Below are positions 2 to 62,921 of a DNA stretch of 64,000 bases, one piece after another. Source of the stretch: an uncultured beta proteobacterium (GTDB taxonomy: Bacteria > Pseudomonadota > Gammaproteobacteria > Burkholderiales > Rhodocyclaceae); contig OW818671.1 of NCBI GenBank assembly GCA_942493065.1, positions 766,104-830,103 on the forward strand, given 5' to 3'. The position numbers and the translations under genes were made by a program. Below the pieces are notes generated by a model. It was not told where the DNA came from. It did no database searches and was given only the letters and a program-made list of their open reading frames with translations. How positions within the stretch are numbered: the first letter of the stretch is position 1; every line of letters starts with the position of its first letter.

Positions 2-244
2 AGTACCTGGAGCAGCCCGAATGCCGGGCCGGTGATGGCGGCAGGCGCCGGCGCGCTAAAAGTCGGCGTTGGCGGGACAGCGATCTATCACGGCGCGATG
101 GAACAGCGTCCGCCGCTCGGCACAGGGGCCGCCCCGCAAGCTGCTGACATCGGCCGCGCAGTAGCGCTGGTCGAGCGTGGTCAGTGGCTGTGGATCGCAT
201 GCTTCGTGATCGGGACCGGGATATGGAGTATGGCCCTTGCTTGA
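2..244 (+). CDS. cbiB: Adenosylcobinamide-phosphate synthase CbiB/CobD family, C-terminal part (5' truncated by window)
   Basis: Frame from nt 2 reads [25 protein letters not shown]...RP.LG, the CbiB C-terminal signature; overlaps next gene. Confidence 0.85.
58..81 (+). repeat. Dispersed 24-bp motif copy 1 (in cbiB)
   Basis: AAAAGTCGGCGTTGGCGGGACAGC; encodes KVGVGGTA. Confidence 0.85.
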
Positions 245-1178
245 GCACGGCGGCAGACTGCGCGCGGCCGCACAGCGCTACGGCATCCCGCTGGCCGAAT
301 GGCTCGATCTATCCACCGGCATCGCCCCCTGGCCGTATCCCCTGCCCGCGCCGCCGGCCGAAGTCTGGCAACGCCTGCCGGAAGACGATGATGGTCTGCT
401 GGCCGCCGCACACGCCTATTACGGCGCCGCCAATCTCCTCGCGCTGCCCGGCAGCCAGGCGGCCATTCAGTTGCTGCCGCGCCTCCTGCCGCCTGCCCGC
501 GTCGCCATGCCCGTCCCGATCTACAACGAGCATCCGGCCGCATGGCAAGCCGCCGGCCATCAGCTTGTCGCATGGGGGGCTGCGGCCGACTATGCGCTGC
601 TATGCAACCCCAACAACCCGACCAGCGCGCGCTTCACGCGGGATGAATTGCTTGCACAGGCCCGCCGTGTCCGCTGGCTGATCGTCGATGAGGCGTTTAT
701 CGATGCCGACCCCGGTGAATCCATGATCGGCTGTGCGGCCGACAACGTGCTGGTGCTGCGCTCCCTCGGCAAGTTTTTCGGGCTGGCCGGCGCGCGCGTG
801 GGCTTCGTCAGCGCACCGCTGGCCATTCGGTCGGCACTCGCCGCACAGATCGGCCCCTGGGCGCTGGCCCACCCGGCGCGCTGGGCCGCGCAGCAGGCCC
901 TGGTCGATCACGACTGGCAGGCCGCACAGCGCCTGCGCAGCCATGCTGCCGCGCAACGCCTGGCCGAACTGCTGCGCACGACCGGTTTGGGTAACGCCAC
1001 TGGTACGGCCCTGTTTCAATACCTGCCCACCCCGCGTGCCAACGCATACCAGGAAGCGCTGGCCAGACAAGGCATTCTGGTGCGCGCCTTCGATCAACCC
1101 GCAGCGCTGCGCTTTGGCCTGCCGGGCAACGAAACCGCGTGGCAACGACTGGCAGCCGCGCTCAAGGAAATAACATGA
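237..1178 (+). CDS. cobD: L-threonine-O-3-phosphate decarboxylase (CobD/CobC), PLP-dependent
   Basis: MLEHGGRL start, NPNNPT, VDEAF and [16 protein letters not shown] class I/II aminotransferase motifs; cob context. TTG start. Confidence 0.9.
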
Positions 1179-2053
1179 AACGATTATTGTTGGGCCTGCT
1201 GGGACTGTTGGCCTTGCCGGCCAGCGCCGAGATCGCGGTAAAGGATGATACGGGCCAGATCGTCCGGCTCGCTGCGCCGGCACGCCGCATCGTCAGCCTG
1301 GCACCGCATGTCACCGAAACGCTGTTCGCCGCCGGGGCGGGCGAGCGCATGGTCAGTGCAGTCGAATACAGCGACTACCCCGACGCGGCAAAAAGACTGC
1401 CGCGCGTCGGCGGTTATTCGAAGCTCGATCTCGAAGCCATCGCCACCCTCAAGCCCGACCTCGCCGTCGGCTGGGCCAGTGGCAACAGCCCGGCACATAT
1501 CGAAAAACTGCGCGCGCTCGGCATCCCCGTCTATCTCGTACAACCCGAGCGCATCGACGATGTGGCGGCCAACCTCGAACGCTATGGCGAACTGGCCGGC
1601 ACCGGCACCGTCGCGCGCGTCGCCGCCGCGAATTTCCGCAACCGCCTTGCAGCGTTGCGCAAGAAGTACGGAGCGCAACCGAAAGTGCGCGTCTTCTACC
1701 AGATCTGGAAGCAGCCGCTGACGACCGTCGGGGGCGGGCAAGTCATCACCGATGCGATCCGCCTGTGCGGTGGCGAAAACGTCTTTGCCGACCTCAAACC
1801 GCTCGCGCCAAAAATCAGCATCGAAGCCGTCCTGGCCGCCGACCCGGAAGTCATCATCGCCAGCGGCATGGGCGAGTCGCGCCCCGAGTGGGTAGACGAC
1901 TGGCGCCATTGGGCGAACATCACGGCAGTCAAGCGCGACAACCTCTTCTTCATCCCGCCCGACCTGATCCAGCGCCACACGCCGCGCCTCGCCGAAGGCG
2001 CCGCGCGACTCTGCGAGCAACTCGAAACAGCACGCGGCAGGCGACCTCAATAA
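1175..2053 (+). CDS. btuF: Cobalamin-binding periplasmic protein (BtuF-like)
   Basis: Signal peptide, RIVSLAPHVTE.LFA.GAG, DYP..AK.LP.VGGY; ATG at 1175 overlaps cobD stop (ATGA). Confidence 0.8.
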   Translation: MKRLLLGLLGLLALPASAEIAVKDDTGQIVRLAAPARRIVSLAPHVTETLFAAGAGERMVSAVEYSDYPDAAKRLPRVGGYSKLDLEAIATLKPDLAVGWASGNSPAHIEKLRALGIPVYLVQPERIDDVAANLERYGELAGTGTVARVAAANFRNRLAALRKKYGAQPKVRVFYQIWKQPLTTVGGGQVITDAIRLCGGENVFADLKPLAPKISIEAVLAADPEVIIASGMGESRPEWVDDWRHWANITAVKRDNLFFIPPDLIQRHTPRLAEGAARLCEQLETARGRRPQ

Positions 2054-2147
2054 GCGGGTGCCGTTCCGCCCCAAAGCGGTGGCCGAGACTTATCGTAGAT
2101 AATCGCTCATGCAGCTTTAGTGCATTCCAAGTTTTATAGGGGGCAGT

Positions 2148-2510
2148 ATGAATTTCAGAGTCACCTCGCATGTCACCATCCTGGCATTGACAGTTGCTGG
2201 ATGTAGCAGTGTCAACCTTTGGCCTTTTAGCGACGATAAGGAGCGGACTGCAGGCAGCGCAGAACCGGCAAATGCAACTCGATACCATTGCGATGGCAAT
2301 AAGACTTTCTACGTCCGGCCGATGTATGAGGGTAAATCTGTGTGGCTAATTCTCCCCGACCGGCAGGTGCGGCTCGATCGCACTGATTCTGGCAAGTTCA
2401 GCAACGGCATATCGGTGCTAAGCATAGAGGGCACCAATGCATCGCTGACGGATGGCCCATCAATTACATACGCGAATTGCTCCACACAACCCAAAGCAAC
2501 TGCCAAGTAA
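2148..2510 (+). CDS. Lipoprotein, MliC-like lysozyme-inhibitor family (probable)
   Basis: Lipobox VAGC; ATRYHC...L.R..SG.FSNG...L...G..A pattern with two Cys as in MliC/PliC. Confidence 0.55.
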   Translation: MNFRVTSHVTILALTVAGCSSVNLWPFSDDKERTAGSAEPANATRYHCDGNKTFYVRPMYEGKSVWLILPDRQVRLDRTDSGKFSNGISVLSIEGTNASLTDGPSITYANCSTQPKATAK

Positions 2511-2698
2511 CAGGTCGCGACTGGCCGTTCCCGGCCCACCACAAGCAACCGATTCCATCGACAAACATAATCCACAGTTTTTGTGGATAAGTCTGAGCCC
2601 AAGTTGCTCGTGCAGCGCTACATCAGGGACTTAGGTGCGATGACCTCGGATGGACATCAAGGAAGGTACGTAACTTAACCGAGTGTGCTGGCGGTCAA

Positions 2699-3145
2699 TT
2701 ACTTTGCGGGTTCCCGTTGCTGCATGGAGACGCTGATCGAAATCGTCGATCCGCCCAGTTGCGAGGTTTCAATTTGAACCATGGCAATTCGCTCACCGCG
2801 CTGGAATGACAACAGGCTTGCCTTGGACTGCATGGCACTCATCAGTTTCCAGCCCAGCGATGGCATGCCCTTGAAAAAATGGTTGTAGGTCTGAACCGGG
2901 TTTTCGTCAGACTTGACGACAACGCGGCCAAACCAGCGATCGCCGGAACCGATGATCAGCGAGTTTTCTGCATCCAGTTTCGCGCTGCCAGGCAAGGAGA
3001 TATCCGTAATCTGGAGCGCATTGGATGGGCTTTGCGAAACCTCTTGATGCTGCGCCGATGTCGCTATCGGCTGATTCGTGACACACCCGCCGAGCAGGAT
3101 GTAAAAAGGCAGCCAGGTGAAACATGATGGTCTGATCATTTTCAT
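2699..3145 (-). CDS. Hypothetical lipoprotein
   Basis: 148-aa ORF with lipobox LGGC after a hydrophobic N-terminus. Confidence 0.65.
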   Translation of the reverse strand: MKMIRPSCFTWLPFYILLGGCVTNQPIATSAQHQEVSQSPSNALQITDISLPGSAKLDAENSLIIGSGDRWFGRVVVKSDENPVQTYNHFFKGMPSLGWKLMSAMQSKASLLSFQRGERIAMVQIETSQLGGSTISISVSMQQREPAK

Positions 3146-3265
3146 CGTTCAATTATGCGGTGGGTTGTCTGAATGCGAAGTGGCGGTGCCTGTTGAATCT
3201 TACCTGTTTAAGCGGATGCCATCATCCCGGCACCGGCATTTCAGCAGGCGGTGCATGCGCAAGCC

Positions 3266-3937
3266 TCAGTAGCTTGGTGCCGTCCCGCCAGCGCCGACTT
3301 TCCAGCGTTCATCGAACAGCACGTCTTCAAGCGGCAGGCGTTGGCCCCAGCCGGCATCTTCGAACATCGGCCTCGGATAGAAGGCCGGCACCTTGCCGAT
3401 GCAGAGGATGGCGAGCGGGCGGGCGCCGGCCGGCATCTCCAGCAGGTCGGCCAGCGCCTGCGGCTCGAAGAACGACACCCAGCCGATGCCGACGCCTTCG
3501 GCGCGTGCCAGCAGCCACATGTTCTGAATCGCGCAACCGACCGAGGCGATGTCCATCTCGGGCAGCGTGCGCCGGCCGATGAGGTGGCGTTCGCGCTCGG
3601 GCATCAGCGCGACGACCAGCAGTTCGGCGCAATCGCGGATGCCTTCGATCTTCACCTGCATGAATTCTTCGTTGCGACTGGGCAGCGCGGCGGCAGTGGC
3701 AAGGCGTTCCTGCTCGACAAGGGCATGGATGCGTGTGCGCCGCTCGGAGTCGCGCACGCGGATGAAGCGCCAGGGCTGCATGTAGCCAACCGAGGGGGCC
3801 AGATGCGCGGCTTCGACCAGACGTTCGATCAGACCTTCCGGCAGCGGGTCGGGCAGGAAGTGGCGCATGTCGCGGCGCTCGCGGATCGTGCGGTCGACAG
3901 CGGCAATTTCGGCGTCGGAATAACGGTGATCGCTCAT
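3266..3937 (-). CDS. bluB: 5,6-dimethylbenzimidazole synthase BluB
   Basis: RERRDMRHF, AAHLAPSVGYMQPWRFI, EGVGIGWVS nitroreductase-like BluB motifs; ATG at 3937 overlaps cobB stop. Confidence 0.92.
   Translation of the reverse strand: MSDHRYSDAEIAAVDRTIRERRDMRHFLPDPLPEGLIERLVEAAHLAPSVGYMQPWRFIRVRDSERRTRIHALVEQERLATAAALPSRNEEFMQVKIEGIRDCAELLVVALMPERERHLIGRRTLPEMDIASVGCAIQNMWLLARAEGVGIGWVSFFEPQALADLLEMPAGARPLAILCIGKVPAFYPRPMFEDAGWGQRLPLEDVLFDERWKVGAGGTAPSY
3279..3302 (-). repeat. Dispersed 24-bp motif copy 2 (bluB 3' end)
   Basis: + strand GCCGTCCCGCCAGCGCCGACTTTC; encodes KVGAGGTA. Confidence 0.9.
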
Positions 3938-5202
3938 GGTAGGAATAACCTTGCGGTGGCGGCCGGGTTCGAGGGAAAGTAGAAGTGCATGTAGCTCGCG
4001 GTGAGGCGGCCGCTGCGATAAATCGCCTCGCCGCCCTTGCCCGCCGTCTTGACGGCCTGTGCAATGGGTGCAAGCGTCGTGTTGGCCGTCGAGTAGTGGA
4101 AGGTGTGGCCGGCGAGGCTGCCCTCGGGCAGGTCGACCGACAGGATGCCGAGGCCAGCGAGCTTCGTTTGCATGCGCACTTGACCGGGCAGGAGGCCGAA
4201 CATCGGGTGGGCATCTAGGCTGTCGAAGCAGGTCATCATGCCGCCGCATTCGGCGAGCAGCGGCTTGCCAGCGGCGACATGGGCGGCAAGGGCGACGCGC
4301 ATCGCGCTGTTGGCGGCGATGGCCGGGCCGTGCAGTTCGGGATAGCCGCCGGGCAGCCAGACGGCGTCGCACGCCGGCAGCACGGCGTCGGCCAGCGGCG
4401 AGAAGAAGGCGAGCCGCGCACCGAGTTGCGCCAGGCATTCGAGATTGGCGGGATACAAAAAGCAGAAGGCCGCATCGCGCGCGACGGCGATGGTCTTGCC
4501 GGCGAGCAGCGGCGCAAATGTCGGCGCTGGCAGGACGGCGAATTCCACGGGCGGGGGCAGTTCGGCGGCAGCCGTGGCGCTGAGCAGGTCGGCCATGCGC
4601 TCGATGCGCGCGTCGAGGTCGGCGATCTCGGCGGCAGGCAAGAGGCCCAGATGGCGCTCGGGCAACGCGGCGTCGACATCGCGCGGCAAGGCGCCGGCCC
4701 AGGCGATGTCCTCAGGCAGCGTTTCGCGGCACAGCTCGGCGTGGTAATCGCTGCCGACGCGGTTGGCGAGCGCATGCGTGATCGGCGCACCATCGCGGTA
4801 ATGCTTCAGTCCCCATGCCACGGCGCCGAAACTGCCGGCCATCGCACTGGCGTCGATGACCAGCAATACCGGCAAGCCCAACCGACGCGCGAGTTCGGCC
4901 GAGTCCGGTGCGCCGTCGTTCAGGCCCATCACGCCCTCGACGAGGAGCAGCTCGGCATCCTGCGCGGCGCGCGCGAGCCGCCAGCGCGCGTCTTCCTCGC
5001 CACCCATGCGGAAGTCGATGTTCTCGCAGGGCTGGCCACTGGCGAGTACGTGAATCTGCGGATCGAGAAAATCCGGCCCGCACTTGAAGACGCGCACCTT
5101 GCGGCCCAGCCGCGTGTGCAGGCGCGTCAGCGCAGCGACCACGGTGGTCTTGCCGTGGCCGGAGGCCGGGGCGGCGACGAGGAGTGCGGGGGTGGCTACC
5201 AT
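3934..5202 (-). CDS. cobB: Cobyrinate a,c-diamide synthase
   Basis: P-loop ASGHGKTT, FKCGPDFLDP, LVEGVMGL, glutaminase GGYPELH and AECGG. Confidence 0.93.
   Translation of the reverse strand: MVATPALLVAAPASGHGKTTVVAALTRLHTRLGRKVRVFKCGPDFLDPQIHVLASGQPCENIDFRMGGEEDARWRLARAAQDAELLLVEGVMGLNDGAPDSAELARRLGLPVLLVIDASAMAGSFGAVAWGLKHYRDGAPITHALANRVGSDYHAELCRETLPEDIAWAGALPRDVDAALPERHLGLLPAAEIADLDARIERMADLLSATAAAELPPPVEFAVLPAPTFAPLLAGKTIAVARDAAFCFLYPANLECLAQLGARLAFFSPLADAVLPACDAVWLPGGYPELHGPAIAANSAMRVALAAHVAAGKPLLAECGGMMTCFDSLDAHPMFGLLPGQVRMQTKLAGLGILSVDLPEGSLAGHTFHYSTANTTLAPIAQAVKTAGKGGEAIYRSGRLTASYMHFYFPSNPAATARLFLP
4516..4539 (+). repeat. Dispersed 24-bp motif copy 3 (in cobB)
   Basis: AAATGTCGGCGCTGGCAGGACGGC; coding strand encodes AVLPAPTF. 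Confidence 0.9.
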
Positions 5203-5795
5203 TCGATCCCCGGCATCGCCTGCACGCCAGCCTGGAAAGCGTGCTTGACCAGCGTCATGTCGGTTACGGTATCGGCGGCCTCAACCAGTTCGGCCGGCGC
5301 GGCGCGCCCGGTAACGATCAGGTGCTGCATCGGCGGGCGGGCTGCGAAGGCGGCGAGCACTTCGGCCGTGTCGAGCCAGCGGTATTTGAGCGCATAAGTG
5401 AATTCGTCGAGAATGACAAGGTCGACGGCGGGATCGGCAAAAGCCTGTTGTGCCACGGCCCATGCCGCCTGTGCAGCAGCAGCATCCTTGGTGGCGTCCT
5501 GCGTCTCCCAGGTAAAACCCTCGCCCATCACATGCCAGCGCAGGTTTGGCTGTGCGCGGAAAAAAGCCTCTTCCCCGGTATCCGAACGGCTTTTGACGAA
5601 CTGGATCACGACCGCATTCAGGCCATGGCCCAACGCGCGCGCCAACACGCCGAAAGCGGCGGATGATTTGCCCTTGCCATTGCCGGTGTGGATCAGGAAG
5701 AGGCCGCGTGCCGTCTGCGCAGCGCCGACTTTTGCGTCGACCACTTCCTTCTTGCGTTGCATGCGCGCGCGATGGCGCTCATCCTTGGGTGTCAT
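5196..5795 (-). CDS. cobO: Cob(I)alamin adenosyltransferase CobO/BtuR
   Basis: HTGNGKGKSSAAFG, VIQFVKS, GEGFTW, LVILDEF, TGR.AP, KHAFQAG...GIEW. Confidence 0.95.
   Translation of the reverse strand: MTPKDERHRARMQRKKEVVDAKVGAAQTARGLFLIHTGNGKGKSSAAFGVLARALGHGLNAVVIQFVKSRSDTGEEAFFRAQPNLRWHVMGEGFTWETQDATKDAAAAQAAWAVAQQAFADPAVDLVILDEFTYALKYRWLDTAEVLAAFAARPPMQHLIVTGRAAPAELVEAADTVTDMTLVKHAFQAGVQAMPGIEW
5710..5733 (-). repeat. Dispersed 24-bp motif copy 4 (in cobO)
   Basis: + strand GCCGTCTGCGCAGCGCCGACTTTT; encodes KVGAAQTA. Confidence 0.85.
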
Positions 5796-6592
5796 GAATC
5801 GAGGTCCTTCATGGTCTGCTGCAGTTGTTCCAGACCCTTGAGCATCACAGGGCCGGGATGGGTGAATAAGGGGCCGTCGAGCGGCAGGATGGGAATGCCC
5901 GGCATGACGATGGCTACATTGCACATCTCGTCGCGACGATTTTTCAGCGCCAGGATGTAATCCGGCTTGCGCTCCTTTATCCAGGCAGCAACATCGCCAC
6001 CGGGTTTGCCGGGATGGAAGTTGCGGATGCTGTCGTGGTCGGCGACAACCTCGAAACCGGCGGCGGCCAGCAGTTCGTGCAGGGTGGTACCGCGGCCGAA
6101 GGAGTAGGGTGCCTCGCCGCAGGCAGAGAGCATCAGCACACGCCGCCCCTTGCCACCGACTCGTTGTGCCGCCGCCCGCCAGTCGGTGGCGAAGCGCTCC
6201 ACGCGGACGTCAATGTCCTTCACGCCGGCGGCACGGCCAATGTCGCGCAGCATGCCTTCCACGCCGACCATGCCGCGAAAGCCATCGACACGCAACGCTT
6301 TGGCGCCGGATGGGGCGGCAGCCTGCCAGACCTCGGCGTTGGTCCAACTTGAGGTGATCATCAGTTGCGGGTCAAGCAGGGCAATGGCATCGGCATCGGG
6401 ATCGATGACGCCACCGGTACGCGGTAGTTCACGCGGATCGTAGCGGCTGACGCCGACAATACAGTCGGCAAGGCCCAGCCAATCGAGCGCCTGCGTGATA
6501 TAGGGCGACTGACTGACGATGCGCGGGCAATCGGCGGCCCGTGCGCTGCCGGCAAGGAGAAGGAATGCAATCAGGAAGAAACGAAAATTCAT
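5792..6592 (-). CDS. ABC transporter substrate-binding protein, helical-backbone (BtuF-like)
   Basis: Signal peptide, RIVSQSPYITQ.L..LGL..CIVGVSRYD; in operon with permease and ATPase. Confidence 0.75.
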   Translation of the reverse strand: MNFRFFLIAFLLLAGSARAADCPRIVSQSPYITQALDWLGLADCIVGVSRYDPRELPRTGGVIDPDADAIALLDPQLMITSSWTNAEVWQAAAPSGAKALRVDGFRGMVGVEGMLRDIGRAAGVKDIDVRVERFATDWRAAAQRVGGKGRRVLMLSACGEAPYSFGRGTTLHELLAAAGFEVVADHDSIRNFHPGKPGGDVAAWIKERKPDYILALKNRRDEMCNVAIVMPGIPILPLDGPLFTHPGPVMLKGLEQLQQTMKDLDS

Positions 6593-6594
6593 AT

Positions 6595-7353
6595 TTACTC
6601 CGGAACAAAGAAATTCTCGACACGACGCAGCGGGTAGCCGTAGAGGTCGGACAGCGTCGCGGCATCGAGAATGTCCGCCGCCGGTCCGGCACGGTGCCGG
6701 CTGTCGCCATAGAGCAGTACGACCTGATCGCAGTAGCGCAAGGCCAGATTGGGGTCGTGCAGCACCATGGCAAATGCGCTGCCTTCGTCGCGAACGCGCT
6801 GCGACAACAGCTCAAGGGTGGCGATCTGGTGGTTGAGGTCGAGGTGCGCCAGCGGCTCATCGAGCAGATACAGGCGCGGTTCCTGCGCAAGTAGCGCGGC
6901 AATCGCCACACGCTGGCGTTCGCCCCCCGAAAGCGTGTGAATTTCGCGCGATTCCATACCTGCCAAACCCATTGCTGCCAGGGCGCGTCGCGCGATCTCC
7001 GTATCCGCATTCGATTCCCACGACCAGCGGTCGAGATGGGGATGGCGACCGGTCAGCGCCGCTTCCAGCACGGTGCTGGCGAACGGATCACTGCGATCCT
7101 GCCCAAGCCAGCCGCGCAGCTTCGCCGCATGGCGCAGCCCATGTTCGACATAGGATTTGCCGGCAAGCAACAGCGTGCCGGCATCGGCCGCCCGCAGGCC
7201 GGCGAGGGTGGCCAGCAGTGTCGACTTGCCCGCACCGTTGCGTCCGAGGATCGCCAGGCGCTTGCCCGGCGCAAGGTCGAGATCGAGATCAAGGCAGACC
7301 TTGTGCAGACCGATGCTGGCAGACAGTCCGCGCGTTGCAAGCATCGCACTCAC
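6595..7353 (-). CDS. ABC transporter ATP-binding protein (BtuD/FepC-like)
   Basis: Walker A GRNGAGKS, LSGGERQRV signature, LLDEP, H-loop VLHD. Confidence 0.9.
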   Translation of the reverse strand: MSAMLATRGLSASIGLHKVCLDLDLDLAPGKRLAILGRNGAGKSTLLATLAGLRAADAGTLLLAGKSYVEHGLRHAAKLRGWLGQDRSDPFASTVLEAALTGRHPHLDRWSWESNADTEIARRALAAMGLAGMESREIHTLSGGERQRVAIAALLAQEPRLYLLDEPLAHLDLNHQIATLELLSQRVRDEGSAFAMVLHDPNLALRYCDQVVLLYGDSRHRAGPAADILDAATLSDLYGYPLRRVENFFVPE

Positions 7354-8324
7354 GTCCTGCGCCCCAGCAGGTAGAGGAACACCGGTACGCCGATCAGCGC
7401 CGTCAGCACGCCGACCGGCAACTGAATCGGCGCAACAATCGTGCGCGCCAGCGTATCCGCCAACACCAGCAGGCTGCCGCCGGCCAGCACGGAAGCAGGG
7501 AGCAGCAAGCGCTGATCGTTACCAATGACGAGACGCACCAAATGCGGCACCACCAGGCCCACAAAGCCGATCGATCCGGCGGTGGTGACCGCGACGGCCG
7601 TCATCAGCGAGGCGATGACATAGACCAGGCGACGCAAGCGGGACACGGCCACGCCGAGCGCAGCAGCCTGCTCGGCACCCCGCGCAAGCAGGTTGAGTTC
7701 GCGCGCAACAGGCAGGATAGCCAGGATGCCCACCAACAGTACCGTCAGCGCTGTCCTTGGATCGGCGACCAGGGACAGATCGCCCATCAGCCAGAACAAC
7801 ATGCCGTGGATCTTCTGCTCGGGCGCCAGTGTCAGCATCAAGGCGATGACGGCACCACAACCGGCGGCAACGACCACACCGGTGAGTAGCAAGCGCGTCT
7901 GCGTCCAGCTGCCATCACCGTGGGCGAGACCAAACACGAGCACCATCGCCGCCAGGGCGCCGCCGAAAGACAGCCCCGCGATACCAAAGCCGGCAAGCCC
8001 CAGCAGCATGGCGGATAGCGCGCCGACACCGGCACCGCCGGAGATGCCGAGCACATAGGGATCGGCCAATGGGTTTCTCAGCAACACCTGCATCAGCGCT
8101 CCCGCCAGTGCCAGCAGGCCGCCACAGGCGAAGCCGGCCAGAGCGCGCGGCAAGCGCAAGTCGAGGACAATGGCACCGCTCGGCGTCGCTGCGCCAGTCA
8201 ATGCGGCCACGACGTCATGCAATGGCAATGCGATGCTGCCCACCGCGAGCGCCACGGCAAGACTCGCCACGCTCAGGCAAGCGAGTAGGGCGAGAACCAG
8301 TAAGGCGCGACGGCGGGTGGGCAT
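7350..8324 (-). CDS. FecCD/BtuC-family ABC permease
   Basis: LRLPRAL, LLRNPLADPYVLGIS.GA, GSIGFVGLVVPH, LPVGVLTALIGVP. Confidence 0.92.
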   Translation of the reverse strand: MPTRRRALLVLALLACLSVASLAVALAVGSIALPLHDVVAALTGAATPSGAIVLDLRLPRALAGFACGGLLALAGALMQVLLRNPLADPYVLGISGGAGVGALSAMLLGLAGFGIAGLSFGGALAAMVLVFGLAHGDGSWTQTRLLLTGVVVAAGCGAVIALMLTLAPEQKIHGMLFWLMGDLSLVADPRTALTVLLVGILAILPVARELNLLARGAEQAAALGVAVSRLRRLVYVIASLMTAVAVTTAGSIGFVGLVVPHLVRLVIGNDQRLLLPASVLAGGSLLVLADTLARTIVAPIQLPVGVLTALIGVPVFLYLLGRRT

Positions 8325-8327
8325 GCG

Positions 8328-10169
8328 CTATTTTGGCTGATAGCGCAGGCCAAGGAACAGATTGGCGCCAGGGGTTCCGAAATCGGCCGCCAATTCATAG
8401 CGCTTGTTAAACAGGTTGTTGATCCGCCCGAATAGCGACCAATCCTTCGCTATTGCGTAGCTGCCATGAAAGTTGGTCAGGGTATAACCACCGAGCCGCA
8501 CGGTATTACCGTTATCGTCATAACGGGCACCGACTACCTGCCATTCACCGCGCCACTCCCATGCACCAACGGATTTGCCCAGCGAGAGGTTCAGGCGTTC
8601 ATTCGCCCGACGTGCCAAGCGCTTGCCGGTTGAAGCATCTTTTGCGTCCAGTAGATCGAGATTACCTCCAACATCATAGCCGCCGAGATAACCAGCATAG
8701 GCCAGTGTCAGGCCCTCAATCCGCGCCCGGCCGACATTCACTGGCGACGTTAGCCCGGACCAGGAAATCAGGTTCTTTACATCGTTACGGTACCAGGTAG
8801 CCGAAACCTGGCCGATGGCGGACTTGTGATGCAATGCAAATTCGCGGTTACGCGCAGATTCCGGCTGAAGATTGGGATTGCCGACGTAGCCAAAATTAAG
8901 CGGGTAATACAGATCGTTGAAGGTCGGCGCACGAAACGCCGTACCGAAATTCATGCTGGCACGCCATGCCGGAGTAAATTGGTAGCCGTATGCCAAAGAG
9001 CCGGTATTGCGGCCGCCAAACTGGGAATTGTCATCTCGGCGCAGGTTGGCCTGGAATCGATGGGCATCATGTTCCGTTGTCCAGCCGGCCAGCCAGGAGC
9101 GAATAGTCCTCCCCTTCAGCGTATAGGCGGCAGTACCACTGATTGTCTGCTGCAAATCTTCCCATCCCAGTAACAATGTGCCCACGGGCAGGCGCACATC
9201 GTTCATCCAGGATGTCTGATTCTGTTCTGTGCGGGTGCTACTGCTGACTGCCCCATTGGTGTAGTTTGTCGAGTCATCCGTCGTCAAGCCGTAACGCAGT
9301 GTGCTCGACCAGCGATCCGTAATCGCATTCTTCAGGTAGCCGGCATAACTTTGCACGATCAGTGCATTCTCATAATCCTTGGCACCAGCCGCAACGGTCG
9401 TTCCGCTATCGTACTTATTGGTGCCATCGCTATGAAAGAGCGTTATCCCGATCTCGTGACCTTTCGTCGGTGCATAGGCAACATTCGCCGTCGCACTCTC
9501 CTGGTGAAAGCCATCTCGGTCCGGGTTAAACCCCTTGTTTGCGGGGTTGCGGATATTGCTGAAGCCGGCAGTCCTGATGCTGCCACCGCTTAGGCTGACA
9601 CGCCATCCATCCTTACCGCCCGTCAAACCGGCATTTGCACTGTACATATCATCACTGCCAACGCCGGCTTCGGCATGGAACCGCATACCGTCCTCACCTC
9701 GTCGGGTGAAAATCTGGACGACGCCACCAATCGCATCGGAGCCGTAAAGCGCAGACGCCGGGCCGCGCAGAATTTCGATACGTTCGATTTGAGAAAGCGG
9801 AATACGCGACCAGGAAAGCGCGCCCAAAGTTGCAGAACCAACACGCTGACCATCAATCAACACCAGCGCATGCCCACTTTCTGTTCCGCGAATGTAGAGG
9901 CTCGAACTGGCGCCCGCACTACCATTTGCCGCATATTCAACACCCGGTTGCCGCGCCAGCAACTGTTCCAGCGTGGACTGTCCGGCGAGCTCGATTTCCT
10001 CTCGATACAACACACTCACATCGGAAAGCAATTTGTCACTTCGTGTCGGAATGCGTGTGGCGGTGACGACGACGGCCGCTTCATCAACTGCAGCAGTTGT
10101 GGCAAAGACAGGTTGAAAAACAATGGAAAGTGCAACGGCGATCACCGTGCGTGAGTGGCGGATAAACAT
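8328..10169 (-). CDS. btuB: TonB-dependent cobalamin receptor BtuB
   Basis: TonB box VVVTATR, plug IERIEILRGPAS.LYGSDAIGGV, C-terminal aromatic end; downstream of B12 riboswitch; ATG at 10169 with GGGAGA RBS. Confidence 0.9.
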   Translation of the reverse strand: MFIRHSRTVIAVALSIVFQPVFATTAAVDEAAVVVTATRIPTRSDKLLSDVSVLYREEIELAGQSTLEQLLARQPGVEYAANGSAGASSSLYIRGTESGHALVLIDGQRVGSATLGALSWSRIPLSQIERIEILRGPASALYGSDAIGGVVQIFTRRGEDGMRFHAEAGVGSDDMYSANAGLTGGKDGWRVSLSGGSIRTAGFSNIRNPANKGFNPDRDGFHQESATANVAYAPTKGHEIGITLFHSDGTNKYDSGTTVAAGAKDYENALIVQSYAGYLKNAITDRWSSTLRYGLTTDDSTNYTNGAVSSSTRTEQNQTSWMNDVRLPVGTLLLGWEDLQQTISGTAAYTLKGRTIRSWLAGWTTEHDAHRFQANLRRDDNSQFGGRNTGSLAYGYQFTPAWRASMNFGTAFRAPTFNDLYYPLNFGYVGNPNLQPESARNREFALHHKSAIGQVSATWYRNDVKNLISWSGLTSPVNVGRARIEGLTLAYAGYLGGYDVGGNLDLLDAKDASTGKRLARRANERLNLSLGKSVGAWEWRGEWQVVGARYDDNGNTVRLGGYTLTNFHGSYAIAKDWSLFGRINNLFNKRYELAADFGTPGANLFLGLRYQPK

Positions 10170-10302
10170 GCGATTCTCCCTGAACGGCCAGCGTCCCCGC
10201 AGGCCGATTGACGGACACGAATGCACAGGGGGAGAAACGGCGGCGGCAGAGATGGAACCCACCGACGCACCGCACCCCGCAGCGCATTCAACTGGATCAT
10301 CC

Positions 10303-10470
10303 GTGGCCGGTCTCCGGGCTTGAAAGTTTTGAACCATCGCCTTCCCGGGAAGATTCCCAGTGGCATTTGGATGGTTCCGCACTTTCTTACCGTTGCGGGG
10401 GCAGCACAGGCATTGTTGTCGCCAACTCACCTGTTTCCCGTTTCACCCGATTTAACTCGGGCACCTCGAA
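10303..10470 (-). ncRNA. Cobalamin (AdoCbl) riboswitch
   Basis: Minus strand has AGGTGCCC..GGGTGAAACGGGAA.CAGGTG..TGCTGCCCCCGCAACGGTAA..GCCACTGGG..GGGAAGGC..AGCCCGGAGACCGGCC (B12 box and conserved core). Confidence 0.95.
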
Positions 10471-10483
10471 CGAAGCGGGGCGG

Positions 10484-10489: not shown

Positions 10490-10505
10490 GGGACGCCGCG
10501 CATGT

Positions 10506-10529
10506 GCTGTACGGCCAGCGCCGACTTTT
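10506..10529 (-). repeat. Dispersed 24-bp motif copy 5 (intergenic)
   Basis: + strand GCTGTACGGCCAGCGCCGACTTTT. Confidence 0.75.
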
Positions 10530-10611: not shown

Positions 10612-10806
10612 ATGAACGAACATCTCGGACGTCTCGAAGGCAAAGTCGCACAGGTCATCGCCCTGTGCGATGCCCTGCGCGCCGAGAATCATCGCCTGCA
10701 TGATCGCGTCGCGGCGCTTGAGGATGAAAAGCAAATCCTCACCGAGCGCATGACGGAGGCCCGTGGTCGCCTCGAAGGCCTGATGGAAAAGCTCCCCGCC
10801 GAATGA
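10612..10806 (+). CDS. ZapB-like coiled-coil cell division protein
   Basis: 64-aa coiled coil (LEGKV..L...LRAEN..L) immediately upstream of and overlapping zapA. Confidence 0.65.
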   Translation: MNEHLGRLEGKVAQVIALCDALRAENHRLHDRVAALEDEKQILTERMTEARGRLEGLMEKLPAE

Positions 10807-11159
10807 GTACCACGCTCGACATCAAAATTCAGGGCCGCGAGTATCGCGTCGCCTGCCCGCCGGAAGAGGTGGAATCGCTCCAGTCAGCGGCCGAACTGCT
10901 GAATACGCGTCTGGATGAGATCGCCAAAGCCACGAAGAGTACCGGTGAGCGTCTGGCGATCATGACCGCGCTGAATCTGGCGCATGAGGTCGATGCGGGC
11001 AAAACCGCTGAGACCGGGGCCATTCCGCAATCGCACACCGCTTCGGCATCGGAAAATTCCATCGCCGCCTCCATTGACGACGCGGAGTCGCTGCGTAAAA
11101 TCGAAGCCATTGAAGCGCGTCTGGATGCAGCGCTCGCCCGGCAGAACGAGCTGTTCTAG
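10803..11159 (+). CDS. zapA: Cell division protein ZapA
   Basis: LDIKIQGREYRVACP.EE..SL..AA..L, ERLAIMTALNLAHE. Confidence 0.9.
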   Translation: MSTTLDIKIQGREYRVACPPEEVESLQSAAELLNTRLDEIAKATKSTGERLAIMTALNLAHEVDAGKTAETGAIPQSHTASASENSIAASIDDAESLRKIEAIEARLDAALARQNELF

Positions 11160-11207
11160 TTTCTCCAAACCCGCCGGGCTGGCCGCCTCCTGTCGCGCTG
11201 ACCCGAA

Positions 11208-11381
11208 TTCCCTGCGGTGTTCGCCTAGGCCATACATTCCTTGAACCAATGCTAATTGGCATCGGTCGCAGCCCATAGACGCCGCCGTTGTGATCGCTCC
11301 TTGCGAGCGAACCTGAAGCGGCAGGAAAGCGGCCACTCTGAACCCAGGTTCAGGATGCCGGCCAAACGACACAGCGGGGAA
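11208..11381 (+). ncRNA. ssrS: 6S RNA
   Basis: Terminal complementarity TTCCCTGCGGTGT/ACACAGCGGGGAA, CCTTGAACC and CTGAACCCAGGTTCAGG elements; conserved position after zapA. Confidence 0.85.
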
Positions 11382-11388
11382 CCTATCG

Positions 11389-13984: not shown

Positions 13985-14007
13985 AAAGTCGGCGTTGGCG
14001 GGACGGC
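13984..14007 (+). repeat. Dispersed 24-bp motif copy 6 (abuts tauE TAA stop)
   Basis: AAAAGTCGGCGTTGGCGGGACGGC. Confidence 0.9.
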
Positions 14008-14023
14008 GCTATACTCTAAAAGC

Positions 14024-44390: not shown

Positions 44391-44404
44391 GCAAGCATCG
44401 TGCC
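44391..44404 (-). promoter_or_regulatory. Putative sigma54 promoter for the transglutaminase-DUF2126 gene
   Basis: Minus strand GGCACG-ATGC-TTGC, GG-N10-GC, 34 nt upstream of ATG. Confidence 0.6.
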
Positions 44405-44416
44405 TTGCCAGCGTGC

Positions 44417-45148: not shown

Positions 45149-45257
45149 GGAGGCGTGGCGCAGGACAATTTGGATCGAGGGCGAATTGTATGCGCTAGGA
45201 ACGGCAGCGCGGCTACCGGAGGCGATCGAACAATGAGCGAATACACCGATTTGATGG

Positions 45258-45274
45258 CTGGCGCGTTTGTTGCA
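45258..45274 (+). promoter_or_regulatory. Putative sigma54 promoter for ATP-grasp/alpha-E genes
   Basis: CTGGCGCG-TTTG-TTGCA, GG-N10-GC. Confidence 0.6.
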
Positions 45275-45285
45275 GAGCAACAGGT

Positions 45286-48328: not shown

Positions 48329-50128
48329 TTAATTGGGTTTCTGCGCTTTTTCGAGGACGCCGAGAAACTGTGAAGCCGGCTGATAACCGACCACGCGCAG
48401 ATCGGTATTTTCCTTGCCATCCTTGAAGAAGATGATACCTGGCGGGCCGAACAGGCCGAAGCGCTTGAGCAGCGCCTTGTCGTCGTCGTTATTGGCCGTG
48501 ACATCCGCCTTGAGCAGGGTGAATTCCTTCATCTTCGCAGCCACCTGCGGATCGGCGAAGGTGAATTTCTCCATCTCCTTGCAGCTCACGCACCAGTCGG
48601 CATAGAAATCGAGCATCACGGGTTTGGTCGCACCGGCAATACGTGCATCGAGTTCGGCAACCGTCTTCACTTTTTCAAAAGTCGGCGCTGGCGAGACGGC
48701 ATTGCCTGCCGTTCTCAGAAATGCGAGGGGCTGCAATGGATCGCGGCTGCCGCCCATCAGTCCGAGCAGCATGGCTGCACCAGCCAGCAGCAAGGTAATG
48801 CCAATGCCTTTCCAGAACCGCGCCCAGCCGCCCGAATGGGCCGGCAGCGGTTCAAGCGCGCGCAGGTAGATGGCCGGCACAATCAGCAACATGGCCCAGC
48901 CGGCCATCACCAGCCAACTCGGCAACACCGGTGAGACCAGCCACAAGGCCGTGGCGAGCAGCACAACGCCGAAGAATTTCTTGACGGCTTCCATCCACGG
49001 GCCGGTCTTGGGCAGGAAGGAACGCGAGAACACGCCGACGGCCAAGAGCGGCGCGCCCATGCCGAGGCCCATGGAGAACAGCGCCGCGCCACCGAGCACG
49101 GCATCCTTCGTCTGTGCGATGTAGAGCAGCGCGCCGGCCAGTGGCGCGGCAACGCAGGGGCCGACGATCAGGGCCGAGAGGGCGCCCATGAGGGCAATTG
49201 CCGGCAGCGAGCCGCCCTGGTGATTGGCGGTGTCCGACAGTTTCGACTGCAAGGCGGCCGGCAGTTGCAATTCATAGAAACCGAACATCGAGAAGGACAG
49301 CACGACGAAAACCAGCGCGAAACTGCCGAGCACCCAGGCGTTTTGCAGGGCGGCCGACAGCAGCGTGCCGCTGAAGCCGGCCGCGACGCCGATTAGCGCA
49401 TAGGTCACGGCCATGCCGAGCACATAGGCCAGCGAGAGCGTGAATGCGCGCAGATGGGTCACCGCGTGCCCATGATTGACGATGATGCCGGAGAGGATCG
49501 GGATCATCGGGAAGACGCAGGGCGTCAGCGATAACAACAGGCCGAAGCCAAAGAAGGTGATGACGGCCATCCAGAAGCCGCTGCCCTTGAGCAATTTGGC
49601 GATCTGGCCGCTCTCGTCGCCTGCGTCGCCACTGGCGGGTGCGGCCGATGCCGTCTCGCCAGCGCCGACATTTGCAGGCAGCGGCACACTGGCCGTTGCG
49701 GGCGCACCGCTCATCGCAGCCAGCGTGATTCTGGCGTCCTGCGTCATTGGCGGATAGCACACGCCGCCATCCCAGCAGCCCTGCGATGTGGCTTTGAGGA
49801 TGACTTGCCCGCTGCCGCTGGCGACGGGAATGCGCGCAACCGCTTCGTTGTCGCGGAAGATATGCACCTTGCCGAAGAACTCGTCGTCCTTTTCCTTGCC
49901 CTTGGGCATCTCGGGTGTGCCGAGCTTGACGCTGGCCGGTTCGACGGCGAATTCGATTTTTTCCTTGTAAAGGTAGTACTCGGGGGTGATGGTCCAGCGT
50001 GCTTCGATGGTCTTGTCGTCCAGCGCACGGGCAGAAAATCGGAAAGCCTGCTCCGGGTCGAGCGGCTCGGCAGCCATAGTAAGGAAGCTGGCAAGCAGCA
50101 GGCTGAACAGGGCAAGAAATCGTGTCAT
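48329..50128 (-). CDS. dsbD: Thiol:disulfide interchange protein DsbD
   Basis: N-domain SQGCWDGGVCYPP, TM SLTPCVFPMIPIL and GPCVAAPL, thioredoxin DFYADWCVSCK. Confidence 0.95.
   Translation of the reverse strand: MTRFLALFSLLLASFLTMAAEPLDPEQAFRFSARALDDKTIEARWTITPEYYLYKEKIEFAVEPASVKLGTPEMPKGKEKDDEFFGKVHIFRDNEAVARIPVASGSGQVILKATSQGCWDGGVCYPPMTQDARITLAAMSGAPATASVPLPANVGAGETASAAPASGDAGDESGQIAKLLKGSGFWMAVITFFGFGLLLSLTPCVFPMIPILSGIIVNHGHAVTHLRAFTLSLAYVLGMAVTYALIGVAAGFSGTLLSAALQNAWVLGSFALVFVVLSFSMFGFYELQLPAALQSKLSDTANHQGGSLPAIALMGALSALIVGPCVAAPLAGALLYIAQTKDAVLGGAALFSMGLGMGAPLLAVGVFSRSFLPKTGPWMEAVKKFFGVVLLATALWLVSPVLPSWLVMAGWAMLLIVPAIYLRALEPLPAHSGGWARFWKGIGITLLLAGAAMLLGLMGGSRDPLQPLAFLRTAGNAVSPAPTFEKVKTVAELDARIAGATKPVMLDFYADWCVSCKEMEKFTFADPQVAAKMKEFTLLKADVTANNDDDKALLKRFGLFGPPGIIFFKDGKENTDLRVVGYQPASQFLGVLEKAQKPN
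48677..48700 (+). repeat. Dispersed 24-bp motif copy 16 (in dsbD linker)
   Basis: AAAAGTCGGCGCTGGCGAGACGGC, identical to copy 8; encodes AVSPAPTF. Confidence 0.92.
49650..49673 (-). repeat. Dispersed 24-bp motif copy 17 (in dsbD linker)
   Basis: + strand GCCGTCTCGCCAGCGCCGACATTT; encodes NVGAGETA. Confidence 0.92.
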
Positions 50129-58633: not shown

Positions 58634-58706
58634 CTTGATCCCCCGATTATTTTTCTCGGGTGTCATGATGGCACATCTGCGCCCCAAGTTGGGGCGTCAT
58701 TTTCTT

Positions 58707-58730
58707 GCCGTCCTACCAGCGCCGACTTTT
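58707..58730 (-). repeat. Dispersed 24-bp motif copy 18 (abuts pgm TAA stop)
   Basis: + strand GCCGTCCTACCAGCGCCGACTTTT. Confidence 0.9.
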
Positions 58731-60444: not shown

Positions 60445-61320
60445 ATGAATGAAGGCACCTCCCTCGACGAGCAGCGTACGGCACAGGCCGAGGCACTGGC
60501 GCGCGCGGGTGCCGACGAACGCGCCAATCACGCCGCGCTGCAGCGCGAGGCGGCGCTTGAAGTCTTGCTGGCCGCAGCCGAAGAACGCACCCAGTCGGAA
60601 CGGCTGGCGGCCGAACAAGCGGCAGCACGCGCGGCCAACGAAGCGCAGGTGCGGCGTCTCGCCATCGACAAGGCGCGTGCCGAACAAACCGCCGAAGCGG
60701 CCCTGAAGGCACGGCTGGAAGCCGAGCAACATGCCTGTGCCGAGGCGCAGCGCAAGGAACAGGCACTGGCCGATCTGGCGGCAGCCTCGGCAGCACGCGC
60801 CAAACGCGAAGCCGACATCGTTGCACTGGAAAAGGAAAAGGCCGCCGCCGAGCGGGCCGCCATCCTTGCGGCACAGGAGCGCGTGCAGTCGGAGCAGGCG
60901 GCCGAAACGCTCGCCCTCACCAAGATCGCCATGGAAGAGGAAACCGCACGCCTGCTGGCGCATCGCCTCGTTGTCGAAAGAGAGGCGGCCGCTGCAGCTG
61001 CAGCACGCCAGCAGACCGAGGCCGAGCTTGAAACCGCCCGTCAGGCGCGCATGGACCTGGAGGGCGAACTGGATGCGCTGGCCACCCAGCGGCCAGAACC
61101 GGCCACGGTACCGACAGCCCCTCCCGCCATGATGACACCTGCCGCCCCGTCATCGCCGACTTTTGCCAAAGTCGGCTGGGGCAAGCTGGCCACCGGCGTA
61201 GCGCTGTGCACTGCGCTCGGACTCATCGTTGGCCTCTGGGTCAACGAAACACCGGCCCGCAAAAGGGCCGGCGTGGAACAGTTCAAACTCGACACGCGGC
61301 TGGCATCGCTGCGGCCCTGA
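60445..61320 (+). CDS. Ala/Glu-rich coiled-coil protein with C-terminal transmembrane helix
   Basis: ~230 aa of A/E/R-rich degenerate repeats, Pro-rich linker, then LATGVALCTALGLIVGLWV. Confidence 0.7.
   Translation: MNEGTSLDEQRTAQAEALARAGADERANHAALQREAALEVLLAAAEERTQSERLAAEQAAARAANEAQVRRLAIDKARAEQTAEAALKARLEAEQHACAEAQRKEQALADLAAASAARAKREADIVALEKEKAAAERAAILAAQERVQSEQAAETLALTKIAMEEETARLLAHRLVVEREAAAAAAARQQTEAELETARQARMDLEGELDALATQRPEPATVPTAPPAMMTPAAPSSPTFAKVGWGKLATGVALCTALGLIVGLWVNETPARKRAGVEQFKLDTRLASLRP
61141..61164 (-). repeat. Dispersed 24-bp motif copy 19 (degenerate, in coiled-coil gene)
   Basis: + strand GCCGCCCCGTCATCGCCGACTTTT; followed by an inverted core AAAGTCGGC. Confidence 0.65.
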
Positions 61321-62247: not shown

Positions 62248-62272
62248 GGCGCAGGACTATACCGCCCTGCAT

Positions 62273-62296
62273 GCCGTCCCGCGAGCGCCGACTTTC
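62273..62296 (-). repeat. Dispersed 24-bp motif copy 20 (intergenic)
   Basis: + strand (AT)GCCGTCCCGCGAGCGCCGACTTTC. Confidence 0.85.
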
Positions 62297-62425
62297 ACGG
62301 TGGCTTCATCCGCCGATCCGGCGCATCAGTCACCCTTCCCACTTGAGCGATTGATCAGGCTACTACTTTAGCTCTATCATTTGCCGTGCCGACTCACTTA
62401 ACACGACAATACGGACACCCAGCAT

Positions 62426-62869
62426 ATGGACAACGATAAAACAAGAAAACTGGCGCTGTCCATCCTGGATGACGGACAGGACAAATTTAATGCCATGCTT
62501 GGCATTGTCAGTCGAATCCGGGATGGCACCTACGAGATATTTGCTGTCTCTTCGGATACCGGGATTCCTGAGGTGGGAGACATCTATCCACTCAAGGCCG
62601 TCTATTGCAGGGAGGTTGCCCAAAGCAAGCGTACGGTTGCGATTACGGAGATAGACGGGATACCCGGTCTGCGCTTACACCCCCTGTATGACACCATTCC
62701 CTGCGAGTTCTACCTCAGCTCACCCATTCTCGTTGATGGCCAAGTATGGGGCACCTTGAACTATACGAGTCTTGAAAAGCGCTCGGCCCCGTTCTCGGCT
62801 GATGAGATTCGCTATAACGAAGTCAAAGCAATGATGATTGCCACGGCAATTGCAGAAAGTATCGGTTGA
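62426..62869 (+). CDS. Stand-alone GAF domain protein, atypically low GC
   Basis: GIVSRI....YEI, YC..V, YL..PILVDGQVWGTLNY.S..KR..PFS..E; GC near 50% in the lines counted. Confidence 0.75.
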   Translation: MDNDKTRKLALSILDDGQDKFNAMLGIVSRIRDGTYEIFAVSSDTGIPEVGDIYPLKAVYCREVAQSKRTVAITEIDGIPGLRLHPLYDTIPCEFYLSSPILVDGQVWGTLNYTSLEKRSAPFSADEIRYNEVKAMMIATAIAESIG

Positions 62870-62897
62870 GCTGAACAACCATTGAGGGCGGCCTGTC

Positions 62898-62921
62898 GCC
62901 GTCCTACCAGCGCCGATTTTT
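62898..62921 (-). repeat. Dispersed 24-bp motif copy 21 (abuts ferritin-like gene TAA stop)
   Basis: + strand GCCGTCCTACCAGCGCCGATTTTT. Confidence 0.88.

Follow-up and report, generated by a model that had tools for sequence, protein, structure and literature searches.

A 25-bp, non-palindromic DNA word recurs about once every 3 kb in the 64,000-nucleotide stretch examined here (the window), which comes from an uncultured member of the Rhodocyclaceae (contig OW818671.1, positions 766,104 to 830,103) and is identical to part of the Rhodocyclaceae metagenome-assembled genome GCA_030824115.1 (JAVBYI010000009.1). The copies arise by substitution, sit where they do least harm and are shared by many species of one clade, while close relatives lack them altogether. 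What might such a word be for? The explanation that we rank first, and to which we give about an even chance, is that it enhances DNA uptake in one clade of the Rhodocyclaceae, the group of Sulfuritalea, Sulfurisoma, Sulfuricystis and Rugosibacter. It would then be a counterpart of the DNA uptake sequence (DUS) of the Neisseriaceae and of the uptake signal sequence (USS) of the Pasteurellaceae.

Anatomy and abundance of the motif

How far does the abundance of the motif exceed chance? A search for AAAWGTCGGCGCTGGNNNGACGGCR at up to three mismatches finds 21 sites in the window, as against 0.03 expected from 100 dinucleotide shuffles. An earlier note on this DNA had arrived at the same number and density from the sequence alone. 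Its start coordinates are right for the plus-strand copies and 1 nt too high for those on the minus strand (3279 becomes 3278, and so on), and the ‘partial cores’ that it placed at 38344, 58381 and 63205 turn out to be matches of merely 9–12 nt. At zero to five mismatches, the window contains 8, 9, 3, 1, 1 and 0 copies, respectively. The spectrum is bimodal: the background starts at six mismatches, and decayed copies are nearly absent. The mean spacing is 3.1 kb and the smallest 625 bp. The density is 0.2–0.5 copies per kb. By extrapolation, the organism's 3.05-Mb contig, on which the DsbD of the window is also found, would carry about 1000 copies.

The consensus can be written AAAAGTCGGCGCTGG-NNN-GACGGCR, a string of 25 bp with about 22 specified positions. 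Within it are two direct half-sites, GTCGGCG and GACGGCR (jointly GWCGGCR), whose starts lie 14 bp apart and which have an A-tract ahead of them. In a frequency matrix of 224 copies from other genomes, most specified positions carry about 1.6–2 bits, the three central positions 0.6–1.3 bits, and every flanking position out to 15 nt on either side at most 0.12 bit. We conclude that the unit is exactly 25 bp. An alignment of the 21 window copies with 50 nt on either side likewise reveals no shared flanks, and a longer element around the motif was rejected on both counts. The left arm never occurs in the window without the right arm at up to two mismatches. The absence of a palindrome and of a nearby transposase, both asserted by the earlier note, is borne out: neither strand of the motif folds better than shuffled controls (z-scores 0.1 to 1.2), and no transposase lies near the copies in the window. 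No Rfam family matches the motif sites; the only Rfam matches in the window are a cobalamin riboswitch and a 6S RNA.

On recounting, 11 copies lie on the plus strand and 10 on the minus strand, with the orientations interleaved, just as had been claimed. GC skew holds one sign over most of the window, so the window probably lies on one replichore. A polar word of the type of Chi or of the FtsK-orienting polar sequences (KOPS) is ruled out by the near-equal use of both strands within a stretch of mostly uniform skew.

Distribution across the Rhodocyclaceae

Is the motif confined to this region? An exact-pattern scan of one genome per species, the counts from which are lower bounds, finds the same consensus in at least 116 blocks of 8 kb from at least 54 species-level assemblies (GC content 0.51–0.67), in each of which the motif occurs on several contigs. 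Nearly all of the motif-bearing assemblies listed are labelled Rhodocyclaceae, Sulfuritalea, Sulfurisoma, Rugosibacter, Sterolibacteriaceae, ‘Methyloversatilis’ or ‘Propionivibrio’. Differences in consensus between genomes are small: position 25 is A or G, and T at position 4 is frequent only in the group to which the window belongs. Cultured organisms are among the carriers. The complete genome of the isolate Sulfuricystis multivorans (AP018718.1) has six copies, at up to four mismatches, in 21.8 kb around dsbD, and Sulfurisoma sediminicola BSN1 (L181) carries the motif as well.

Among relatives, presence of the motif is all-or-none. We compared 80 metagenomic loci that encode relatives of CobB. 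Some are rich in the motif: L209 has 12 copies in 21 kb, L200 five in 9.6 kb and L253 five in 10.9 kb. The loci L207, L214 and L219, at 76–77% CobB identity and of similar GC content, have none in up to 21 kb, and the same is true of nearly all loci at 71% CobB identity or less. The motif-less sister lineages, with no copies in 21 kb, span 67–77% CobB identity. Some of them retain traces. Remnants with six mismatches stand at the orthologous CobB site in L207 and L214 and at the CobO site in L214. L214 also has a perfect left arm beside a destroyed right arm. These traces (L207 10663–10687, minus strand; L214 10663–10687, minus strand, 9464–9488, plus strand, and 2764–2788, minus strand) look like decay after the loss of a motif-maintaining system.

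Counts of k-mers in the 21-kb loci of the motif-less relatives reveal no substitute abundant word. In one of these loci, L230 (Ga0316613_10000109), a different word, GGGCACGGCGAACAC, and related 11-mers occur five to six times in 21 kb, perhaps as a dispersed repeat of that lineage with no relation to the motif.

Copies also occur in DNA that is, or may be, mobile. Between pgm and an AAA+ gene, locus L198 has an island (2500–8534) with Fic, Bro-N, a Gp49/HI1420-like toxin–antitoxin pair and a Ser/Thr kinase. This island, an insertion relative to the gene order of the window, holds three copies. Three of the five copies in the L198 locus have the variant GAAACTCGG..., in one of which the leading GA completes a TGA stop. 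A phage contig of 7.3 kb (L059, IMG/VR 3300036987_000060), which encodes MuA-like and MuB-like transposition proteins (PHROGs 310 and 296), has three copies, at 276–300 (minus strand), 423–447 (minus strand) and 1901–1925 (plus strand). Another phage contig, L060, with a DNA polymerase and a helicase, has one. The phages of the clade are thus not free of the motif.

Origin by substitution and turnover of copies

Were the copies inserted, or were they written into existing DNA? Evidence comes from orthologues with and without the motif. The linker of CobB is equally long in motif-bearing and motif-less orthologues (the latter reading, for example, VSFDDVKRPEV): the slice compared has 37 residues in nearly all of 81 sequences. 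At the second of two sites in DsbD, the motif-less AAPEHVVFERI is as long as the motif-bearing AVSPAPTFEKV. The peptide EKSALAER, encoded by a copy in a P-type ATPase, aligns without a gap to NGDLASRS of human SPCA1, and to a bacterial paralogue as well, and ThiL has no insertion at its motif site relative to solved homologues, being if anything shorter. In L196, a locus syntenic with the window (88% DsbD identity), only the left half of the motif is found at the C-terminus of the Alpha-E protein. A search for orthologues among the first 116 blocks yielded a paralogue-level match (L108) that hints at the absence of an indel; in L130 and L188, synteny breaks at the site. Given the equal lengths, the half-motif and the lack of inverted repeats or target duplications, we reject an insertional origin, whether by a miniature inverted-repeat transposable element (MITE) or by a repetitive extragenic palindrome (REP).

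Once present, a copy may outlast its surroundings. The window and L196 have four copies in common: past the pgm stop, in the gap between the TPM-domain and transglutaminase-like genes, upstream of lemA, and at the second DsbD site. The intergenic DNA adjoining the copies kept has diverged or contains a 70-bp indel. Upstream of lemA (window 38997–39021, L196 21204–21228), synteny breaks exactly at the outer edge of the motif, with a methyltransferase gene on one side and a PilZN-domain gene on the other.

Among 120 DsbD orthologues, 62 share the peptide of the second site, the most distant of these at about 70% identity. The first DsbD linker behaves differently: 56 orthologues have the motif there in antisense, whereas the window and three others have it in sense, at a slightly shifted place. 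In two orthologues, P0073 and P0095, this linker contains two motif-encoded peptides or a tandem AVPINPAxRAD duplication. These double peptides and duplications mark the first linker as a hotspot of copy gain and loss. Because the orientation flips, what recurs is a copy in a tolerant linker and not a fixed position or orientation.

Third-codon conservation in CobB suggests that sites are kept at the level of DNA. It is 0.85 (the highest value) in the motif codons against 0.75 in the flanks of motif-bearing lineages, and 0.44 (the lowest value) against 0.61 in motif-less lineages, a test that is partly circular because the groups are defined by the motif.

Placement of copies

Where does the genome tolerate the motif? 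Our sample for this question comprises 246 copies, from the window and from 116 blocks of 8 kb of other genomes. Sixty per cent of these copies lie in coding sequence, which makes up 82% of the DNA (for the window copies the figure is 57%). Sense copies within genes use one reading frame in 68 of 85 cases; for the antisense copies, two frames account for 37 and 20 of 62. The dominant frames encode K/N-V-G-A-G-x-T-A in sense and A-V-x-P-A-P-T-F in antisense. The in-gene copies of the window fall in inter-domain linkers or at protein termini, outside Pfam domains. Of 99 intergenic copies, 40 lie within 15 nt of a stop codon or gene 3′ end and 10 near a gene 5′ end; of those 40, 23 are in sense and 17 in antisense orientation. 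The deficit in coding sequence, the frame bias and the enrichment at gene ends together indicate that the motif sits, in either orientation, where harm is least.

The individual copies of the window illustrate this. Genes were called by codon scoring and then checked with Pfam, PDB and precomputed annotations. The calls agree with the earlier division into 12 copies within genes and 9 between them; copy 58 falls in CobD/CbiB and copy 24617 in a CinA-domain gene. Four of the intergenic copies overlap a TAA stop.

58–82, plus strand, two mismatches: within the C-terminus of CobD/CbiB, sense frame LKVGVGGTA.
3217–3241, minus strand, four mismatches: probable degenerate 22nd copy, about 25 nt downstream of the bluB stop (0.03 expected at up to four mismatches).
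3278–3302, minus strand, one mismatch: last 12 codons of a BluB-like nitroreductase, past the Pfam domain; sense, KVGAGGTA.
4516–4540, plus strand, exact: CobB, linker between the CbiA and GATase_3 domains; antisense, AVLPAPTF.
5709–5733, minus strand, one mismatch: CobO, between the Co_AT_N and CobA domains; sense, KVGAAQTA.
10505–10529, minus strand, two mismatches: intergenic, 22 nt upstream of the cobalamin riboswitch of a btuB-like receptor; adjoins TATAAT.
13984–14008, plus strand, one mismatch: intergenic; starts on the final A of the TAA stop of a TauE-family gene.
24617–24641, plus strand, one mismatch: CinA-domain gene (24532–25026, minus strand), antisense, rare frame.
25764–25788, plus strand, exact: ThiL, antisense, AVSPAPTF.
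30408–30432, minus strand, one mismatch: intergenic; overlaps the TAA stop of an FAA-hydrolase gene by 2 nt.
32355–32379, plus strand, exact: P-type ATPase, antisense, RRLPSADF.
33236–33260, minus strand, one mismatch: P-type ATPase, sense, EKSALAER.
34636–34660, plus strand, one mismatch: intergenic, divergent region upstream of a Bax1-I family gene.
38997–39021, plus strand, exact: intergenic, 5 nt past a methyltransferase stop, upstream of lemA; kept in L196.
41008–41032, plus strand, exact: fills the gap between the convergent stops of the TPM-domain and transglutaminase-like genes; kept in L196.
47690–47714, plus strand, one mismatch: last codons of the Alpha-E domain gene (NVGAGGMA).
48677–48701, plus strand, exact: DsbD, linker ahead of the thioredoxin domain (second site); antisense, AVSPAPTF.
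49649–49673, minus strand, exact: DsbD, linker past the N-terminal domain; sense, NVGAGETA.
58706–58730, minus strand, exact: intergenic; overlaps the TAA stop of the phosphoglucomutase gene (pgm); kept in L196 with a diverged downstream flank.
61140–61164, minus strand, three mismatches: coiled-coil protein with no Pfam family; antisense, AAPSSPTF.
62272–62296, minus strand, two mismatches: intergenic, about 25 nt upstream of a Crp/Fnr-like gene.
62897–62921, minus strand, one mismatch: intergenic; overlaps the TAA stop of a rubrerythrin-like gene by 2 nt.

Several intergenic copies adjoin −10-like hexamers. The distance varies from 0 to 16 nt, with no fixed geometry, and lends no support to a promoter role of the motif.

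Some neighbours of these copies deserve mention in their own right. The cobalamin riboswitch (Rfam RF00174, 119.8 bits; 10288–10483, minus strand) lies upstream of the gene for the TonB-dependent receptor of the cob/btu cluster, and its position indicates that the open reading frame at 8328–10430 over-extends into the leader. The 6S RNA (Rfam RF00013, 56.7 bits; 11206–11384, plus strand) directly follows a ZapA-like gene (10803–11159), in the classic zapA–ssrS order. A cluster at 41033–47720, syntenic in L196 and with a motif copy at each end, encodes a transglutaminase-like/DUF2126 protein of 1107 residues, a proteasome-type subunit, a circularly permuted ATP-grasp protein and the Alpha-E protein. 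The coiled-coil gene with the three-mismatch copy (60445–61320, plus strand) encodes 291 residues, rich in alanine and glutamate, with a C-terminal hydrophobic segment.

What is the motif for?

We rank an uptake-type signal first because the motif combines what is typical of DUS and USS: it is neither palindromic nor polar, it originates by substitution, it is placed where it is tolerated, and it is conserved across a clade whose sister lineages retain remnants. From this combination we infer competence, a bias in uptake and a receptor to go with them. The receptor, a part of the natural-transformation machinery exposed at the cell surface and most plausibly a minor type IV pilin or some other protein associated with the pilus, would bind double-stranded DNA that carries the motif, possibly by reading the two half-sites GWCGGCR, 14 bp apart. 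Fragments from members of the clade would be taken up preferentially and then recombined, such that point mutations moving a locus toward the motif would be over-transmitted, a molecular drive like that modelled for USS. Purifying selection would leave copies only at places of low harm, namely linkers, termini and the bases just past stops, and the tolerated frames would be the two that give bland Gly/Ala/Pro peptides. Prepilins with an MshE/PilB-type ATPase (L116) and DprA (L171) are indeed encoded in motif-bearing genomes, but such genes are widespread, and these finds are weak evidence.

The earlier note had already proposed an uptake signal and had named results that would speak against it. 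Those that could be sought in silico came out in favour of the proposal: the motif is found on many contigs of many genomes and not in this region alone, its strands are used 11 to 10 with no polarity, and it sits in core genes with no transposase or MITE structure about it. The other part of the proposal, kinship in sequence with the Neisseria and Haemophilus signals, did not survive, as described below.

Several observations weigh against an uptake signal. In length, the motif is double any known uptake signal, and it far exceeds DUS, at 10–12 nt, and the 9-nt USS core with its weak flanks in information too; with about 22 specified positions, essentially all of them conserved, it would oblige a receptor to span more than two turns of the helix. 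Its density is two to four times below that of the signals in Neisseria or Haemophilus. DUS and USS often form inverted pairs that act as terminators; the window has no inverted pairs, and hairpins near intergenic copies are inconsistent, those beside 58706 and 41008 not being kept in L196. The motif is present in the accessory island of L198 and in the Mu-like phage contig, and depletion from mobile DNA is not demonstrated. In about 0.9 Mb of DNA from the clade, regular-expression screens turned up no more than one pilin cluster and one DprA, and no receptor. The literature that we searched contains no data on uptake or transformation by members of the clade and nothing relevant on uptake sequences in, or the competence of, Rhodocyclaceae, Sulfuritalea, Sulfurisoma or Sulfuricystis. 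In full-text searches, neither the motif string nor its reverse complement gave a match.

What else could keep such a word intact? The main rival reading, which the earlier note also allowed in the form of a genome-wide protein-binding site, is that the motif is the site of an abundant, highly specific chromosomal DNA-binding protein that acts in cis, each site being kept by selection of its own; chromosome structuring, a transcription roadblock at gene ends or a ‘self’ mark for a nuclease or defence system are conceivable roles. The sharp 25-bp edges and the two direct half-sites resemble a protein footprint, sites are kept across species while their flanks diverge, and both the enrichment of intergenic copies at gene 3′ ends in either orientation and the −10-like hexamers beside several of them would suit such a protein. 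But the variable distance of those hexamers fits no promoter geometry, some 57–60% of copies lie within genes in either orientation, and about 1000 near-perfect sites of 25 bp would demand an unusually large benefit per site. The known genome-wide cis words, Chi and KOPS, are polar 8-mers, and the flips of orientation in a single linker suit a word of which any nearby copy suffices better than one with a positional role. We consider a cis-acting protein possible but doubtful. Slightly more doubtful is that the motif is the footprint of an undescribed genome-wide system that writes the word by substitution and keeps it near-perfect at about 1000 sites, such as a ‘self’ mark read by a nuclease, defence or repair machine, or a repair bias that converts near-matches to the consensus. 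Whole lineages would gain or lose such a system, and its loss would leave remnants to decay.

Another route of transfer with its own molecular drive would account for some of the same facts, since origin by substitution, clade specificity and decay after loss are expected of any transfer bias. The motif would then be a packaging or initiation site of a phage or of an element like a gene transfer agent, or the nick site of a relaxase. Copies do occur in genuine phage contigs, including the Mu-like one with three, and at one motif synteny breaks exactly. Yet no known packaging or nick site recurs every ~3 kb in both orientations; nick regions at origins of transfer normally adjoin an inverted repeat, which is missing here; a thousand nick sites would be hazardous to a chromosome; and the window has no relaxase, terminase or gene-transfer-agent genes. 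This explanation seems unlikely to us. A miniature mobile or copy-paste element (a MITE, a REP or REP doublet forming hairpins (REPIN), or insertion by a dedicated enzyme) is largely refuted and very improbable. It would explain the high number of near-identical copies and the exact 25-bp unit in many genomes; it is contradicted by the lack of terminal inverted repeats, target duplications, conserved flanks and a palindrome, by the location of most copies in genes, by the equal lengths of orthologues at the CobB, ATPase, ThiL and DsbD sites, by the half-motif and six-mismatch remnants at orthologous sites, and by the absence of any transposase or REP-associated tyrosine transposase (RAYT) nearby. 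Is it then the peptide (AVSPAPTF or KVGAGxTA), or an RNA element, that is selected, and not the DNA? The two dominant frames do yield recurring peptides in unrelated proteins, and some intergenic copies lie in sense orientation where a 3′ untranslated region would be. Nine of the 21 window copies are intergenic, however; one DNA word serves in both orientations and is read in five frames or more; the peptides lie outside Pfam domains, in linkers or termini; and there is neither an RNA structure nor an Rfam family, copies abutting stops 23 times in sense and 17 in antisense. This last alternative, also largely refuted, is the least probable of all.

Significance

To our knowledge, sequence-specific DNA uptake is known from two families only, the Neisseriaceae and the Pasteurellaceae, both of them host-associated. 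A survey of 2025 still treats uptake-enhancing sequences as a feature of these two. If the motif is an uptake signal, it would be a third, unrelated one, in free-living, sulfur-oxidizing and denitrifying Rhodocyclaceae, and self-preferring transformation would have evolved repeatedly, also outside animal hosts. A longer, bipartite signal would then be available for the study of how receptors read DNA. The motif-less sisters with their decaying remnants amount to a natural experiment, in which the receptor might be discovered by the co-distribution of genes and motif. The uptake hypothesis is directly testable, since carriers such as Sulfuricystis multivorans (AP018718.1) and Sulfurisoma sediminicola BSN1 are in culture. 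Adding the 25-mer to constructs might render transformable some environmental bacteria that are hard to engineer. Even if the function is not uptake, a 25-bp word kept near-perfect by substitution across at least 54 species demands a new explanation.

Comparison with known systems

How does the motif compare with other short, abundant words? REP/REPIN sequences and MITEs are likewise short, abundant, dispersed and of lineage-specific consensus. They are palindromic or have terminal inverted repeats, are intergenic and inserted, and are linked to a RAYT or transposase; the motif is none of these. Chi, read by RecBCD, and KOPS, read by FtsK, share with the motif their genome-wide spread, their origin by substitution and their tolerance within genes. 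They are 8-mers with far less information and are strongly skewed to one strand per replichore, unlike a word found on 11 plus and 10 minus strands.

The USS of the Pasteurellaceae, of which the Hin type has the core AAGTGCGGT and T-rich flanks, is closer in form: both words are long and asymmetric, the extended USS measuring about 29 bp. Many USS copies are reported to lie in coding regions, with a bias of reading frame and in less constrained protein segments (PMC2817400), and the accumulation of uptake sequences by point mutation is explained by uptake bias and recombination, that is, by molecular drive (PMC3458573, with Maughan et al. cited there). The motif resembles USS in its coding-region copies with their frame bias, and the same explanation may apply. 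Its left arm, AAAAGTCGG, loosely resembles AAAGTGCGG. The resemblance ends there. USS uptake depends on the inner core GCGG (PMC3458573), which is part of the USS cores AAGTGCGGT and ACAAGCGGT; the left arm of the motif, AAAAGTCGGCG, lacks GCGG in that context, and about half the copies contain GCGG only by chance, within their variable triplet. GCGG is therefore not at the corresponding place, and the motif was rejected as a USS dialect. USS consists of a 9-bp core with weak, T-rich flanks, whereas all 22 specified positions of the motif are strongly conserved and its flanks carry no information. The host class differs too.

With the DUS of the Neisseriaceae (AT-DUS ATGCCGTCTGAA, read by the minor pilin ComP), the motif was compared position by position. 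Throughout the eight dialects of DUS, a CTG core (+6 to +8) and an A at +10 are conserved and are required for transformation (PMC3630211). The reverse strand of the motif starts YGCCGTC, like DUS +1 to +6, and continues as GCCGTC-[C/T]-C-G-C, with C or T at +7, C (77%) at +8 and C at +10. Since it has neither the CTG core nor the A at +10, the motif was rejected as a DUS dialect. Five copies do read ATGCCGTC on the reverse strand, as the earlier note had counted, but the extra base is not kept (T in 12% of 224 copies), and the ‘AT’ extension is not conserved. The shared strings GCCGTC and AAGT-CGG are short enough for coincidence. At 25 bp against 10–12 bp, the motif is also longer, its host belongs to the Rhodocyclaceae, and it does not form the inverted pairs by which DUS acts as a terminator. 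In behaviour, on the other hand, the two are alike. Both are non-palindromic words used in both orientations; both have a consensus common to many species of one betaproteobacterial lineage and absent from its neighbours; and both have genic and intergenic copies, the latter just downstream of genes. What appears to be new, judging from these comparisons, is behaviour like that of DUS and USS in a new lineage, exhibited by an unrelated and much longer bipartite word.

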